Assembly (NCBI RefSeq): GCF_003334305.1 | Contig: NZ_QOWS01000004.1 | DNA length: 64,000 nt | Direction: 5' to 3' (one strand) | Source: Escherichia coli | GTDB lineage: Bacteria; Pseudomonadota; Gammaproteobacteria; Enterobacterales; Enterobacteriaceae | Shown: piece after piece, positions 1,174 through 33,890 of the stretch | Layout of the letters: each line of letters opens with the position of its first letter | How positions within the stretch are numbered: position 1 is the first letter of the stretch | Translations under genes and position numbers: made by a program | Notes under the pieces: generated by a model | What the model saw: the letters and a program-made list of their open reading frames with translations, nothing else | What the model was told of the DNA's origin: nothing | Databases searched by the model: none

Positions 1174-3804
1174 TTATTGCAATTTCGCGCTGACCCAGCC
1201 TTTCACACTGGCTAACGCTGCAGGTAAGGCCGCAGCATCCGTACCACCGGCTTGCGCCATGTCAGGACGTCCACCACCCTTGCCGCCCACCTGCTGAGCG
1301 ACCATACCAATCAGTTCCCCTGCTTTCACACGATCTGTGACGTCCTTAGATACGCCTGCAATCAGAGAAACCTTACCTTCGGCTACCGTTGCCAGCACGA
1401 TAATTGTCGACCCCAGCTGATTTTTTAAATCGTCAACCATGGTACGCAACATTTTCGGCTCAACACCGCTAAGCTCGCTAACCAACAGCTTAACACCATT
1501 AACATCAATTGCCTTACTGGAAAGATTTGCGCTCTCCTGTGCGGCAGCTTGTTCTTTAAGCTGTTGTAGTTCTTTTTCTAACTGACGCGTACGTTCCAGT
1601 ACTGAGCGCACTTTATCCGCCAGATTATTGCTATCGCCTTTCAGCAGATGCGCGACTTCGCTTAAGCGATCGCTGTCTGCATGAACGGTGGTGATAGCGC
1701 CTTCTCCGGTTACCGCTTCGATACGACGAACGCCTGCAGCAGTACCCGATTCAGAGATGATGCGGAACAGACCAATATCACCAGTGCGGCTGGCGTGAGT
1801 ACCGCCACACAGCTCGGTGGAGAAATCGCCCATGCTCAGCACGCGTACACGCTCATCATACTTCTCGCCGAACAGCGCCATCGCACCTTTCGCTTTCGCC
1901 GCTTCGAGATCCATGATGTTGGTTTCGATCGGCAAATTGCGACGAATCTGTGCGTTCACCAGGTCTTCGACCGCACGAATCTCTTCCGGTTTCATCGCTT
2001 CGTTGTGTGAGAAGTCGAAGCGCAGCACCTTGTCGTTAACCAGTGAACCTTTCTGCGATACATGAGTCCCCAGAACCTGGCGCAGCGCAGCGTGCATCAG
2101 GTGCGTTGCGGAGTGATTCAGACGAATACGGGCGCGACGAGCCTCATCAACATCAGCCTGCACAGCGTCGCCCACTTTCAGAGAACCCGCAGCAAGTTTA
2201 CCGATGTGACCAATCGCCTGGCCGTATTTCTGCGTATCTTCCACCGCGAAGGAGAAGTTAGCGCCTTTCAGTTCGCCTTTATCACCAACCTGACCGCCGG
2301 ATTCCGCATAGAATGGTGTTTGATCCAGCACGACCACAGCTTCCTGGCCTGCATTGATGGCATCAACCGCTTTACCATCAACAAACAGCGCGGTCACTTT
2401 GCCGTTCAGTTCCAGATGGTCATAGCCTTTAAATTCAGATGCACTATCAACACGGATCATTGCGTTGTAATCGGCACCAAAGCCGCTGGCTTCGCGCGCG
2501 CGACGACGCTGCTCTTCCATTGCTGCTTCAAAACCAGCTTCGTCAACTTTGATGTTGCGCTCACGACAAACATCAGCCGTCAGGTCAACCGGGAAGCCAT
2601 AGGTGTCGTACAGACGGAAAGCCGTTTCACCATCCAGCGTATCACCAGAAAGTTTTGCCAGCTCTTCATCCAGCAACGCCAGACCGCGCTCCAGAGTACG
2701 GGCAAACTGCTCTTCTTCAGTCTTCAGCACCTGCTCAACCTGCGCCTGCTGGCGTTTCAGGTCTTCACCCGCAGAGCCCATAACGTCGATCAGCGGACCA
2801 ACCAGTTTGTAGAAGAAGGTTTCTTTCGCGCCGAGCATATTGCCGTGACGCACTGCGCGACGAATGATACGACGCAGTACATAACCACGGTTTTCATTGG
2901 ACGGCATTACGCCATCCGCGATCAGGAACGCACAAGAACGAATGTGGTCAGCGATTACGCGCAGCGATTTATTGCTCAGATCGGTCGCGCCAGTGACTTT
3001 CGCTACCGCCTGGATCAACGTGCGGAACAGGTCGATGTCATAGTTAGAGTTAACGTGTTGCAGCACCGCAGCAATACGCTCCAGACCCATACCGGTATCT
3101 ACAGACGGCTTCGGCAGCGGTTCCATCGTGCCATCTGCCTGGCGGTTGAACTGCATGAAGACGATGTTCCAGATCTCAATGTAGCGGTCGCCGTCTTCTT
3201 CCGGACTTCCCGGAGGGCCACCCCAAATGTGGTCGCCGTGATCGTAGAAGATTTCGGTGCACGGGCCGCACGGACCAGTGTCACCCATCTGCCAGAAGTT
3301 GTCAGATGCGTATGGCGCACCTTTGTTATCGCCGATGCGAATAATACGTTCGCGCGGGATCCCGACTTCTTTTTCCCAGATTTCGTAGGCTTCGTCGTCG
3401 CTTTCATAGACGGTAACCCACAGACGCTCTTTCGGCAGGGCAAACCATTTTTCGCTGGTCAGCAGTTCCCATGCAAACTGAATGGCATCGTGTTTGAAAT
3501 AGTCGCCGAAGCTGAAGTTGCCCAGCATTTCGAAGAAGGTATGGTGACGCGCGGTGTAACCGACGTTTTCCAGGTCGTTGTGTTTACCACCCGCACGCAC
3601 GCAGCGTTGGGAAGTGGTAGCGCGGGAATAATTACGCTTGTCGAGCCCAAGGAACACATCCTTGAACTGGTTCATCCCGGCGTTGGTAAACAACAAAGTT
3701 GGGTCGTTATGGGGTACCAGGGAGCTGCTGGCAACTACCTGATGTCCCTTACTATGGAAAAAGTCGAGAAACGCCTGACGGATCTCAGCGGTGCTCTTGC
3801 TCAT
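1174..3804 (-). CDS. alaS: Alanine--tRNA ligase
   Basis: ORF track 876 aa, starts [24 protein letters not shown]; class II aaRS; position downstream of recX. Confidence 0.97.
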
Positions 3805-11788: not shown

Positions 11789-12746
11789 AGCACTACTGAA
11801 CGCGGGACGTCAGACGTTAATGCTGGAGTTGCAGGAAGCAAGCCGATTACCGGAACGTCTGGGCGATGATTTTGTTCGCGCCGCCAATATCATCCTGCAC
11901 TGCGAAGGCAAAGTGGTGGTTTCGGGAATTGGCAAATCGGGCCACATTGGTAAGAAAATCGCCGCAACACTTGCCAGTACCGGCACACCGGCTTTTTTTG
12001 TCCATCCGGCAGAGGCACTGCACGGCGATCTGGGGATGATTGAAAGCCGCGATGTGATGCTGTTTATCTCTTACTCCGGTGGCGCGAAGGAACTGGATCT
12101 GATTATTCCGCGTCTGGAAGATAAATCTATCGCGCTGCTGGCGATGACCGGCAAACCGACGTCACCGCTGGGCCTGGCGGCAAAAGCGGTGCTTGATATC
12201 TCCGTAGAACGCGAAGCCTGCCCGATGCACCTTGCGCCGACCTCCAGCACCGTCAATACCCTGATGATGGGTGACGCGCTGGCGATGGCGGTCATGCAGG
12301 CGCGCGGATTTAATGAAGAAGATTTTGCCCGCTCCCACCCAGCCGGGGCACTGGGCGCTCGCTTGCTGAATAAAGTGCATCATCTGATGCGCCGTGACGA
12401 TGCCATCCCACAGGTGGCGTTAACCGCCAGCGTGATGGATGCGATGCTGGAACTCAGCCGCACCGGTCTGGGGCTGGTGGCGGTATGTGACGCTCAACAA
12501 CAGGTACAAGGCGTCTTTACCGACGGCGATTTACGTCGCTGGCTGGTTGGCGGCGGCGCACTCACCACGCCAGTTAATGAAGCGATGACGGTCGGCGGCA
12601 CCACGTTGCAATCGCAAAGTCGCGCCATCGACGCCAAAGAGATCCTGATGAAGCGCAAAATCACTGCCGCACCGGTGGTAGATGAAAACGGCAAACTCAC
12701 CGGCGCAATTAACCTGCAGGATTTCTATCAGGCCGGGATTATTTAA
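11781..12746 (+). CDS. gutQ: D-arabinose 5-phosphate isomerase (SIS + tandem CBS domains)
   Basis: ORF track 321 aa; SIS motif [29 protein letters not shown]. Confidence 0.93.
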
Positions 12747-14257
12747 TCCTTCATTCCCAGACGTTTCGCCAGCCGATGCAGGTTGGCGACGTCGGTTTCC
12801 AGCATCCGCGCGCAGGCAGCCCAGTTGTGATGATTTTGTGCCAGCGCCTGACGAATAGTTTCACGCTGGAACGCTTCTGTCGCTTCACGCAGGTTTTGCT
12901 TAACAACGGGCACCGCCGCCGCTTCTGGCGGCGGCAACGTCACCTCAGGAAAAGCAAAATGTTGCGCCTCAAGAATCACTTCATCGCCGTTGCGGGTGGC
13001 TCTCGACAGCACTACCGCCCGATGAATAGCATGTTCCAGTTCGCGCACGTTCCCCGGAAAACGATAGTGTTGCAGTAAATTTCGCGCTCCGGCACTTAAT
13101 ACCACGCGGGAGAGCCCCAGCCGCAAACGACACTGCTCGCAGAAATACCCCGCCAGCAGAATGACATCATCGCCCCGCTCACGCAGCGGCGGCACCGAAA
13201 GTGGAAACACGCTCAGGCGATGAAACAAGTCAGCGCGAAATCGCCCTGCCAGCACCTCTTCGCGTAAGTCGCGGTTAGTCGCCGCCAGCACGCGCACATC
13301 GACCCGCAAACTGCGGTCATCGCCAACGCGCTGAATATCGCCATACTGCAACACCCTCAGCAGCTTGGCCTGCAATGCCAACGACAACTCGCCGATCTCA
13401 TCCAGAAACAGAGTGCCGTTATCCGCCATTTCAAACTTCCCGCTGCGGTTACTGATAGCGCCAGTAAACGCTCCTTTCACATGCCCGAACAGTTCACTTT
13501 CCGCCACACTTTCCGGCAGTGCGGCACAGTTGAGATAGACCAGCGGATTCACCGCCCGTGGCGAGGCTTCATGAATCGCTTTCGCCACCAGCTCCTTACC
13601 GGTTCCCGTCTCACCGCTGATCAGGACGTTGAGATCGGACGCCGCCACAATCTCAATCTCTTTTTTCAGTTGCGTCATGCCAGGGGACAAGCCAATCATC
13701 TGCGTCTGTTTCACCGCTTCAAACGGCGTGGCATCGCCTGGCATCATATTCTGGCTTTCCAGTTGTTCAATCAGCAACGCATTGCTTAACGCTCCCGCCG
13801 CCAGCGCAGCAATCAGCCGTAGCTCTTCGTCGCTGAAAACATCGAACTGATCGGGCTGCATCCCGTCGAGCGTCAGTGCGCCGATCAGGTTTTGCCCGGC
13901 AAACAATGGCAGACCAACGCAGGCGTGAACCTTCAGACTCTCCTGCCCAGGAATCAAACCGTCATAGGGATCGGGCAATTCGCTGTCTGCGGGAAAGCGC
14001 ACCACATCCCCGGCGCGGGCAATCGCTTCCAGCCGTGGATGCCCTTCCAGCGCAAAGCGTCTACCGAGTACATCCTTTGCCAGACCGTCGATGGCAAGCG
14101 GAATAAACTGCCGCGAATCGTAACGTAGCAACGCAGACGCATCGCACTCCAGCACCTGACGTAGCGTGGTGATCAGGCGCTGAAAACGATCCTGATGACC
14201 AATCCCACGCTGCAATTCGATGGCGATATTCGCCAGCACATCAACGGAAAAACTCAT
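12743..14257 (-). CDS. norR: Sigma54-dependent nitric-oxide-responsive activator NorR
   Basis: ORF track 12743..14332; start taken at [18 protein letters not shown] (504 aa); GAF + AAA+ (GETGTGKE) + HTH. Confidence 0.95.
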
Positions 14258-14269
14258 CTTTGCCTCACT

Positions 14270-14325
14270 GTCAATTTGACTATAGATATTGTCATATCGA
14301 CCATTTGATTGATAGTCATTTTGAC
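14270..14325. promoter_or_regulatory. Three NorR enhancer sites (GT-N7-AC): gtcaatttgac, gtcatatcgac, gtcattttgac
   Basis: Three copies of the GTCA-N3-TGAC motif at 14270-14280, 14291-14301 and 14315-14325 in the norR/norV divergent region. Confidence 0.85.
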
Positions 14326-14380
14326 TACTCATTAATGAGCATACTTTTATTTATATAGTAAAAACAATCAGATAAAAAAC

Positions 14381-14396
14381 TGGCACGCAATCTGCA
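14381..14396 (+). promoter_or_regulatory. Sigma54 (-24/-12) promoter of norVW
   Basis: TGGCACgcaatcTGCA matches the TGGCAC-N5-TTGCA consensus, ~50 nt upstream of the norV ATG. Confidence 0.85.
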
Positions 14397-14443
14397 ATTA
14401 GCAAGACATCTTTTTAGAACACGCTGAATAAATTGAGGTTGCT

Positions 14444-15883
14444 ATGTCTATTGTGGTGAAAAATAACATTCATTGGGTTGGTCAACGTGACTGGGAAGTG
14501 CGTGATTTTCACGGCACGGAATATAAAACGCTGCGCGGCAGCAGTTACAACAGCTACCTCATCCGCGAAGAAAAAAACGTGCTGATCGACACCGTCGACC
14601 ATAAATTCAGCCGCGAATTTGTGCAGAACCTGCGTAATGAAATCGATCTGGCGGATATCGATTACATCGTGATTAACCATGCAGAAGAGGACCACGCTGG
14701 GGCGCTGACCGAACTGATGGCGCAAATTCCCGATACGCCGATCTACTGTACTGCCAACGCTATCGACTCGATAAATGGTCATCACCATCATCCGGAGTGG
14801 AATTTTAATGTGGTGAAAACTGGCGACACGCTGGATATCGGCAACGGCAAACAGCTCATTTTTGTCGAAACACCAATGCTGCACTGGCCGGACAGCATGA
14901 TGACTTACCTGACAGGCGACGCGGTGCTGTTCAGTAACGATGCTTTCGGTCAGCACTACTGCGACGAGCATCTGTTCAACGATGAAGTGGATCAGACGGA
15001 GCTTTTCGAGCAGTGCCAGCGTTACTACGCCAATATCCTGACGCCGTTCAGCCGCCTGGTAACGCCGAAAATTACCGAGATCCTGGGCTTTAACTTACCA
15101 GTCGATATGATAGCGACCTCCCACGGCGTGGTCTGGCGCGATAACCCGACGCAAATTGTCGAGCTGTACCTGAAGTGGGCCGCTGATTATCAGGAAGACA
15201 GAATCACCATTTTCTACGACACCATGTCGAATAACACCCGCATGATGGCTGACGCTATCGCCCAGGGAATTGCGGAAACCGACCCACGCGTGGCGGTGAA
15301 AATTTTCAACGTCGCCCGAAGCGATAAAAACGAAATCCTGACCAATGTCTTCCGCTCAAAAGGCGTGCTGGTCGGCACTTCGACGATGAATAACGTGATG
15401 ATGCCGAAAATCGCCGGGCTGGTGGAGGAGATGACTGGTTTACGCTTCCGTAACAAACGCGCCAGTGCTTTCGGCTCTCACGGCTGGAGCGGCGGTGCGG
15501 TGGATCGTCTTTCCACGCGCCTGCAGGATGCGGGTTTCGAAATGTCGCTTAGCCTGAAAGCCAAATGGCGACCAGACCAGGACGCTCTGGAGTTATGTCG
15601 TGAACACGGTCGCGAAATCGCCCGTCAGTGGGCGCTCGCGCCGCTGCCGCAGAGCACGGTGAATACGGTGGTTAAAGAAGAAACCTCTGCCACCACGACG
15701 GCTGACCTCGGCCCACGGATGCAGTGCAGCGTCTGCCAGTGGATTTACGATCCGGCAAAAGGCGAGCCAATGCAGGACGTTGCGCCAGGAACGCCGTGGA
15801 GTGAAGTCCCGGATAACTTCCTCTGCCCGGAATGCTCCCTCGGCAAAGACGTCTTTGAAGAACTGGCATCGGAGGCAAAATGA
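14444..15883 (+). CDS. norV: Anaerobic nitric oxide reductase flavorubredoxin
   Basis: ORF track 479 aa; metallo-beta-lactamase and flavodoxin domains with C-terminal rubredoxin CxxC...CPxC. Confidence 0.95.
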
Positions 15884-17013
15884 GTAACGGCATTGTGATC
15901 ATCGGTTCGGGCTTCGCCGCCCGCCAACTGGTGAAAAATATTCGCAAACAGGACGCCACTATTCCATTAACCCTGATTGCCGCCGACAGCATGGATGAGT
16001 ACAACAAACCTGACCTCAGCCATGTTATCAGTCAGGGGCAACGTGCCGATGACCTTACCCGCCAGACGGCGGGTGAATTTGCCGAGCAGTTTAATCTGCA
16101 CCTGTTTCCACAAACCTGGGTGACGGATATCGATGCCGAAGCCCGTGTGGTGAAAAGCCAGAATAATCAGTGGCAATACGACAAGCTAGTACTGGCAACC
16201 GGTGCCAGTGCCTTTGTCCCGCCTGTGCCTGGGCGTGAGTTAATGCTGACGTTAAATAGTCAGCAAGAGTATCGCGCCTGTGAAACGCAACTGCGGGATG
16301 CCCGACGCGTGTTGATTGTTGGCGGTGGTTTGATTGGTAGCGAACTGGCGATGGATTTTTGTCGTGCAGGCAAAGCGGTCACGCTAATCGACAACGCTGC
16401 CAGTATTCTGGCGTCATTAATGCCACCGGAAGTAAGCAGCCGCTTGCAGCATCGGTTGACGGAGATGGGCGTTCATCTGTTGTTGAAATCTCAGTTGCAG
16501 GGGCTGGAAAAAACAGATTCTGGCATTCTGGCAACGCTGGACCGCCAGCGCAGTATCGAAGTGGATGCGGTAATTGCCGCCACCGGACTGCGCCCGGAAA
16601 CCGCCCTGGCACGACGCGCCGGGCTGACGATTAATCGCGGCGTTTGCGTCGATAGTTATCTGCAAACCAGTAATGCCGATATTTACGCGCTGGGCGATTG
16701 CGCGGAAATTAACGGTCAGGTATTGCCGTTCCTCCAGCCGATTCAACTTAGCGCGATGGTGCTGGCAAAAAATCTTCTCGGCAATAACACGCCACTGAAA
16801 CTACCGGCGATGCTGGTGAAAATCAAAACGCCGGAATTACCGCTGCATCTGGCAGGCGAAACCCAGCGTCAGGATTTACGCTGGCAAATTAATACCGAAC
16901 GCCAGGGAATGGTGGCGCGCGGCGTTGACGATGCTGACCAGCTTCGCGCCTTTGTGGTCAGTGAGGATCGGATGAAAGAGGCATTTGGATTGTTGAAAAC
17001 ATTGCCGATGTAG
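15880..17013 (+). CDS. norW: NADH:flavorubredoxin reductase
   Basis: ORF track 377 aa; FAD/NAD motifs [10 protein letters not shown] and [14 protein letters not shown]; overlaps norV stop. Confidence 0.95.
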
Positions 17014-17220
<207 letters not shown>

Positions 17221-33282: not shown

Positions 33283-33744
33283 TCATGCTGCCGGGCTTTG
33301 TCCCTTTACCAGTTGGCTTAAATTCACCGGCACATTGTTTTCAATGGCGGTGTATAAGCTGTCGTAAACGCCAGCGATTTTTTCGAGATAGTGTTCCAGA
33401 ACCTGTTCGCGATCGCGGATGTTGACCTTGCCATCAATCATGCCGTCAATGCTCAGTTGCGCCTGCGCAATCCGCTGTTTGTCTTCGCCATCTTTTGTTT
33501 CGACGTAATACTCGATGGTGTGGCTGTTAAAGCCATCCGCCAGGGTGACGTAAATACGAAAATGTTCAAAAAGGACGAAACAGAGTTCTTTGTCCGGCGC
33601 GCAGCTCATGGCGTGATGCAGGCGCGCTTTCGATAACGTGATCCCCTGAACCAGCGAATTGCAGTAGATGTGCCACTGGTCCTGTAGGCGACGATGCCGC
33701 TGTGCGATGTAATCGGCTTTCTCGCTTATTTCCCAAATAGTCAT
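33283..33744 (-). CDS. hycA: Formate hydrogenlyase regulatory protein HycA (antagonist of FhlA)
   Basis: ORF track 153 aa MTIWEISEKADYIAQRHRRLQDQWHIYCNS; first gene of hyc operon. Confidence 0.93.
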   Translation of the reverse strand: MTIWEISEKADYIAQRHRRLQDQWHIYCNSLVQGITLSKARLHHAMSCAPDKELCFVLFEHFRIYVTLADGFNSHTIEYYVETKDGEDKQRIAQAQLSIDGMIDGKVNIRDREQVLEHYLEKIAGVYDSLYTAIENNVPVNLSQLVKGQSPAA

Positions 33745-33781
33745 TGTCAGGTTACCCGTTTAACAGAGATGCCAGCTTTAA

Positions 33782-33844: not shown

Positions 33845-33890
33845 TCGTCGCCGTGTCGACGTGTCATTTCGACATCATCGACATTATTCA
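33845..33890. promoter_or_regulatory. Candidate FhlA upstream activating region (repeated TGTCG / CGACA half-sites)
   Basis: tcgtcgccgtgtcgacgtgtcatttcgacatcatcgacatt, dense inverted repeats between the divergent sigma54 promoters. Confidence 0.55.

Follow-up and report, generated by a model that had tools for sequence, protein, structure and literature searches.

The norR–norVW divergent control region of an Escherichia coli chromosome compared with its K-12 counterpart

Introduction

The closest described system is the norR–norVW region of E. coli K-12 (Tucker et al. 2004, J Bacteriol 186:6656; Tucker et al. 2010, PMC2831303), which is the same locus as the one analyzed here. The 2010 study replaced GT-N7-AC by GG-N7-CC in each NorR site and gives the primer sequences (PMC2831303). 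The published span of NorR protection runs from –137 to –84. NorR activates norV in vivo, and has its ATPase stimulated in vitro, only when all three sites are intact; a mutation in any one of them abolishes both effects (PMC2831303). On a 266-bp fragment comprising the three sites plus flanks, NorR forms a ring-shaped higher-order oligomer, and IHF binds between the enhancer and the start site (PMC2831303). Binding of NorR at these sites regulates both norVW and norR, and in engineered sensors removal of the second IHF site changes promoter output (PMC11334186). The AAA+ domain of NorR is controlled by its GAF domain, and NO at the GAF-domain iron relieves this repression (PMC2941729). A gSELEX peak for the RpoN holoenzyme has been found in the K-12 norR/norV spacer (PMC8743547).

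A more distant counterpart is the fhpR(norR)–fhp(hmp) region of Pseudomonas. Like the E. coli locus, it has three boxes (GTCR-N3-YGAC) beside a divergent NorR homologue, an AT-rich spacer, a –24/–12-like element and an NO-detoxifying gene; the Pseudomonas version carries a TTGAT block in the spacer and an element of the form TGGCAY-N5-NTGAT. It differs in its target, a flavohaemoglobin rather than a flavorubredoxin, in its regulator, which is ∼50% identical, and in its –12 dinucleotide, GA instead of GC. The FhlA-dependent hyc/hyp promoters likewise use sigma-54, a GAF-domain enhancer-binding protein and upstream sites in a divergent spacer, yet they differ from norVW in activator (FhlA, which senses formate), upstream sequences and target genes. 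They lie in the same 64-kb window, by which we mean the whole stretch of E. coli DNA that was analyzed.

Results

The norR/norV intergenic region and its flanking genes

Inspection of the 64-kb window identified positions 14258–14443 as the 186-bp norR/norV intergenic region of the E. coli chromosome. The norR start codon reads CAT at 14255–14257 (minus strand) and the norV ATG is at 14444, so the region is the exact gap between the two genes. The genes are as follows.

12743–14257, minus strand: norR, encoding an NO-sensing sigma-54 enhancer-binding protein of 504 aa with GAF, AAA+ and HTH domains
14444–15883, plus strand: norV, encoding the flavorubredoxin NO reductase, 479 aa
15880–17013, plus strand: norW, encoding the NADH reductase of NorV, 377 aa

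NorR is a full-length match to the NCBIfam NorR equivalog NF003451 (825 bits versus a cut-off of 476), and NorV and NorW exceed their NCBIfam equivalog cut-offs similarly (1047 bits versus 711 and 685 bits versus 392, respectively). None of the three proteins has an internal stop or a truncation. The GAFTGA motif of NorR is present at residue 262, and the rubredoxin domain of NorV spans residues 427–472. Also present in NorR are R75, D96, D99, C113 and D131, which we take to be the residues of the iron centre as listed by Tucker and colleagues in 2008. Genes norV and norW overlap by 4 bp and form a full-length pair in one operon, with a joint extent of 14444–17013. The cognate norR is divergent and directly adjoins the boxes described below. 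RefSeq labels the flanks norR, norV and norW in K-12 as well as in a strain whose spacer is identical, and places gutQ/srlR on one side and hypF on the other.

The norR frame stays open upstream across 14258–14332 (minus strand) to an ATG at 14332, generating a 529-aa ORF that spans all three boxes. We rejected this longer ORF as a real gene, the true start being at 14257 (504 aa), although gene callers could be misled by it. A search with Rfam found no known RNA element in the norR/norV spacer; the only matches in the window were three tRNAs at its start.

Farther from the region, we aligned the window with strain 504838, which has the same norR/norV spacer sequence; the alignment breaks in the norW–hypF spacer at 17114–17117, where ∼95 bp of the 504838 sequence aligns twice. 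This pattern suggests that the copy number of a REP-like repeat differs between the two sequences. Beyond ygbA, strain 504838 also has an island that carries IS3 elements together with Drt3b, a nuclease-related protein and an ABC-three-component system (L124:1-9640; window ∼40456). The window is without this island and runs directly into an ordinary mutS-to-cysN region, 100% identical to that of strains such as A7.

Three NorR boxes and their frequency by chance

The spacer contains three NorR boxes.

14270–14280: NorR box 3 (promoter-distal), GTCAATTTGAC
14291–14301: NorR box 2, GTCATATCGAC
14315–14325: NorR box 1 (promoter-proximal), GTCATTTTGAC

All three are 11-bp near-palindromes of the form GTCA-N3-YGAC, that is, inverted repeats with a GT-N7-AC core. 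The centre-to-centre distances are 21 bp from box 3 to box 2 and 24 bp from box 2 to box 1, about two helical turns each, and the centre of box 1 lies 62 bp from the first G of the –24 GG. These boxes are the sequences that were mutated and footprinted in K-12 as NorR sites 1–3, with published numbering that runs from the promoter-proximal site 1 (14315–25) to site 3 (14270–80) (PMC2831303). The published Site1, Site2 and Site3 mutagenic primers all map to the window and differ from it solely at the designed bases, GT to GG and AC to CC. The 21-bp NorR1 oligonucleotide matches exactly at 14311–14331, as does the norV fusion primer at 14486–14505. By-eye comparison places the published 66-bp NorR123 oligonucleotide within the window at about 14265–14330.

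The original prediction had called three NorR sites at 14270–14325 from a GT-N7-AC motif. The sites are where it put them, and they agree with the published primers apart from the designed changes, but the motif does not hold up as evidence. Bare GT-N7-AC occurs 199 times in the 64-kb window against 198 expected. At least three copies within 46 bp were seen in 210 of 300 random 64-kb sequences, and the real window has further such triple clusters at 3554 and 6524/6551. With a frequency at the chance rate, bare GT-N7-AC was rejected as an indicator. The extended form behaves differently: GTCA-N3-YGAC gave 16 strand-counted matches in the window versus 3.8 expected, and three copies within 56 bp appeared in none of 300 simulated 64-kb sequences and in none of 40,000 simulated 186-bp sequences with the spacer's own AT-rich composition. 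The significance of the boxes rests only on the extended palindrome repeated three times, a clustering far beyond chance. The practical lesson is that GT-N7-AC alone has no discriminating power, and that calls should be based on the extended palindrome, its occurrence as a triple array, and its genomic context.

A fourth strict match, GTCAACGTGAC, lies at 14481–14491, 38 bp into norV. We rejected it as a NorR box; the T of the match falls at the wobble position of a Gly codon, within the conserved peptide GQRDW. Because the match is kept in only 3 of 11 other enterobacterial loci, we attribute it to coding coincidence. Elsewhere in the window, the hycA/hypA spacer has dense repeats of the GTCGAC/TCGAC type at 33845–33885 (CGTCGCCGTGTCGACGTGTCATTTCGACATCATCGACA), including a NorR-like box, GTCATTTCGAC, at 33863. 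These repeats are probably FhlA upstream sites. The resemblance of the 33863 site to a NorR box is of note because FhlA and NorR both have GAF domains.

The sigma-54 promoter and the putative start site of norV

Downstream of the boxes lie the following elements.

14381–14396, plus strand: sigma-54 promoter of norVW, TGGCACGCAATCTGCA, with GG at 14382–83 and GC at 14394–95
14407, plus strand: putative norV transcription start, giving a 37-nt leader
14435–14438, plus strand: Shine–Dalgarno element of norV, GAGG

The promoter element comprises 16 nt, TGGCAC-N5-CTGCA, in the canonical 12-bp GG-to-GC register. Its coordinates are those given by the original prediction, whose formula (TGGCAC-N5-TGCA, 15 nt) is nonetheless one base short. 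Compared with the strict consensus TGGCAC-N5-TTGCW, TGGCACGCAATCTGCA agrees at 15 of 16 positions, with C for T before the GC, and its doublets have the canonical spacing. It matches TGGCACN5YTGCW exactly. Such exact matches are expected about once per Mb at the local composition and number three in the 64-kb window. The element is identical in the window and in K-12.

From the published footprint numbering, we infer that norV transcription starts at 14407. A start here puts GG at –25/–24, GC at –13/–12, G14270 of box 3 at –137 and G14323 of box 1 at –84. It was chosen because it is the sole start that fits –137 and –84 to G residues of box 3 and box 1 and also gives –25/–24 and –13/–12 for the doublets. 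With this start, the published –137 to –84 span corresponds to the outer G residues of the boxes. Owing to the palindromic symmetry of the boxes, a start at 14409 also fits the footprint, via the bottom-strand G residues, if the other strand was labelled. That alternative is disfavoured, as it would place the doublets at the non-canonical positions –27/–26 and –15/–14. Comparison with published footprints had been proposed as a check on the original call of correct spacing upstream of norV. The comparison is consistent with the call: given a start at 14407, the –137 to –84 span maps onto the boxes, and the box-to-promoter geometry would fit both that span and the –24/–12 register.

Other promoter-like sequences in the spacer were also considered. 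A plus-strand sigma-70-like candidate, TTGTCA-16-GATAGT (14289–14316), was rejected, with one found versus 1.3 expected by chance. On the minus strand, a TATAGT hexamer is present at 14286–14281, between boxes 3 and 2. It is all that a search of that strand for a norR promoter returned in the spacer, where there was no acceptable –35 and no convincing –35/–10 pair.

A further 16-mer with an exact sigma-54 consensus, TGGCACATCTACTGCA, is found at 33660–33675 (minus strand), inside hycA, ∼70 nt after the start codon and in the same direction as the gene. It is separate from the expected promoters of the spacer, at 33781–96 for hyc (minus) and 33910–25 for hyp (plus). Either an intragenic RpoN site or a chance match would account for it.

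The AT-rich spacer and differences from K-12

Between the boxes and the promoter are two further features, absent from the original prediction, which had left out the IHF-bent spacer between enhancer and promoter as well as the site numbering.

14326–14380: AT-rich spacer, 75–85% A+T, in which published work places IHF binding and DNA bending
14362–14374: IHF-like block, AAACAATCAGATA, with 2 mismatches to the IHF consensus WATCARNNNNTTR

The best IHF candidates in the window stand at 2 mismatches, a poor match. In 10 of 11 other enterobacterial loci, a block 5–6 bp upstream of TGGCAC has 0–1 mismatches to WATCARNNNNTTR. Tucker's 2004 work reportedly described two IHF sites.

Alignment with K-12 MG1655 showed the spacer to be 186 bp in both and 98.4% identical. 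The boxes, the –24/–12 element, the leader and the start codons are identical. All three differences (K-12 > window: 14338 G>A, 14344 A>C and 14356 G>T) fall in the AT-rich spacer, outside the boxes and the promoter. Relative to K-12, NorR has nine substitutions, NorV one and NorW three, and no defined functional element is touched. The window carries a common, non-K-12 allele of the spacer: 686 E. coli records match it at ≥99% identity. All 5426 complete E. coli genomes searched have the norR/norV spacer, some of them with 100% identity to the window.

E. coli isolate AF3, from a blood culture (NZ_OZ547117.1; L003:3489-3629), is the only one of these 5426 genomes to cover <80% of the spacer. 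It has a 45-bp deletion equivalent to window positions 14270–14314, which fuses the GTCA of box 3 to box 1 and leaves a single NorR box before an intact norR, norV and norW. Given the requirement for all three boxes (PMC2831303), AF3 is predicted to be unable to induce norVW.

Conservation in other taxa

We scanned one genome per species with a pattern that required three boxes, and at least 120 loci matched. Conservation of the boxes in this set is not independent evidence, the boxes being required by the pattern; the other features were not required. Among the 120 matches listed, 28 had a NorR homologue whose N-terminus lay no more than 250 bp from the array, 30 were unrelated tandem-repeat loci and 62 were single arrays without a nearby NorR. 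With at least 120 matches that include tandem repeats and arrays without NorR, the scan cannot serve to estimate the specificity of the array.

The 11 other enterobacterial loci come from Citrobacter, E. albertii, Enterobacter, Lelliottia, Pseudescherichia and Morganella. In the alignment of 12 enterobacterial sequences TGGCACG is invariant, a feature that the search pattern did not demand. The distance from box 1 to GG is 60–63 bp in the 11 loci. Box spacing is 21/24 bp in the enterobacterial loci and 19/24 in Morganella, with the 21-bp spacing kept in 10 of 11; the remainder of the spacer has diverged. Thirteen Pseudomonas loci, in which the neighbouring NorR homologue is ∼50% identical, have their elements in this order too. 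The downstream gene was examined in one of them and encodes an NO-inducible flavohaemoprotein (562 bits versus 432). This layout across taxa agrees with the comparative account in PMC1274295.

A strict sigma-54 regular expression missed most other genera, whose –12 element is TTGAT, and direct alignment was used in its place. Enterobacter, Lelliottia, Pseudescherichia and Morganella (L029, L039, L053, L072, L073 and L081), together with all 13 Pseudomonas loci (L009:1995-2010, for instance), have TTGAT or CTGAT at –12, where GA replaces the canonical GC. Among the norV/hmp promoters compared, CTGCA at –12 occurs only in Escherichia and Citrobacter. Conservation of a non-canonical –12 dinucleotide over such a distance is unexpected.

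The triple-box pattern also matched tandem arrays of GTCR-N3-YGAC with a period of ∼21–24 bp in Bacteroides/Prevotella, Rathayibacter, Methanoculleus and Oscillospiraceae (L007, L022, L032, L041, L071, L074 and others). No NorR homologue was found near the arrays of these groups.

Discussion

The region at 14258–14443 is almost certainly the native E. coli norR–norVW divergent control region, functioning as published for K-12. The feature is already known in full detail and nothing about it is novel. The elements, their identity to tested K-12 sequences, the geometry, the conservation across genera and the intact genes come from this analysis; NorR binding, the need for three sites, the hexamer, the role of IHF and NO sensing come from the literature.

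Might the motif matches be chance hits of a short degenerate consensus in an AT-rich spacer, with no regulatory meaning? Taken by itself, the bare GT-N7-AC core would invite that reading, given its chance-rate occurrence and the ease with which triple clusters arise in simulations and elsewhere in the window. The extended palindrome does not, as no simulation reproduced its triple cluster. Moreover, the boxes are identical to sites that have been mutated and footprinted experimentally, and other genera retain both their spacing and the –24 element in an otherwise diverged spacer. The likelihood of a chance origin is thus practically nil. A different question is what the boxes mainly do. Their near edge is 13 bp from the norR start codon, which leaves no room for a norR promoter that does not overlap them; the minus-strand TATAGT sits between boxes 3 and 2; and NorR at these sites is known to regulate norR in addition to norVW (PMC11334186). 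All of this would suit an operator devoted chiefly to negative autoregulation of norR, with norV activation secondary. Yet a mutation in a single box abolishes norV activation and ATPase stimulation (PMC2831303), the conserved 60–63 bp to the sigma-54 promoter reflects a constraint of activation and not of repression, and the norR strand offers no convincing –35/–10 pair. We consider it very improbable that autoregulation is the main function. As an added role that does not replace activation, norR autoregulation is plausible.

It is also conceivable that the architecture is present but weakened, either by the three spacer substitutions or by the nine in NorR. The three changes do lie in the region of published IHF binding, where removal of the second IHF site altered the output of engineered sensors (PMC11334186). 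They nevertheless belong to a common natural allele, shared at ≥99% identity by 686 E. coli records, and occupy columns that vary freely between genera; for these two reasons impairment by the SNPs is unlikely. The NorR substitutions, for their part, avoid GAFTGA and the iron ligands, and the protein scores far above the equivalog cut-off. Overall, we regard a weakened system as improbable. There is a slight chance that the allele A14338/C14344/T14356 alters DNA bending or IHF occupancy and so shifts the NO threshold or the basal leak of norVW. If so, E. coli lineages would differ in their NO response through natural tuning by the spacer allele.

We return to the reading of the locus as an enhancer-dependent control region like that of K-12. 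In the proposed scheme, NorR dimers would bind the three inverted-repeat boxes, whose centres lie about 87, 111 and 132 bp upstream of the putative start, and the boxes, jointly and with flanking DNA, would nucleate a NorR hexamer. An IHF-induced bend in the AT-rich spacer would allow the hexamer to reach sigma-54 RNA polymerase, held as a closed complex at –24/–12. NO, by binding the non-haem iron of the NorR GAF domain, would relieve repression of the AAA+ ATPase. ATP hydrolysis would then open the promoter, leading to norVW transcription and anaerobic reduction of NO. The window has all the sequence components of this scheme, unaltered and in the right places, with the IHF-like block at 14362–14374 as a candidate for the IHF site.

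The value of the locus is as a control only. A first-stage reader, working from sequence, located with single-base accuracy an enhancer and a sigma-54 promoter that are real and have been defined by experiment. Its description of the region as a textbook arrangement and an internal check was apt: the elements are identical to tested K-12 sequences and can be used as a positive control for motif calls. Its further suggestion of an intact regulon is likewise consistent with what we found, namely genes free of stops and truncation, a NorR with GAFTGA and iron-centre residues in place, and differences from K-12 in the intergenic region confined to unconserved spacer. These data indicate that the NO-detoxification module is intact here, unlike in strains with a truncated norV or with the rare enhancer deletion of AF3.
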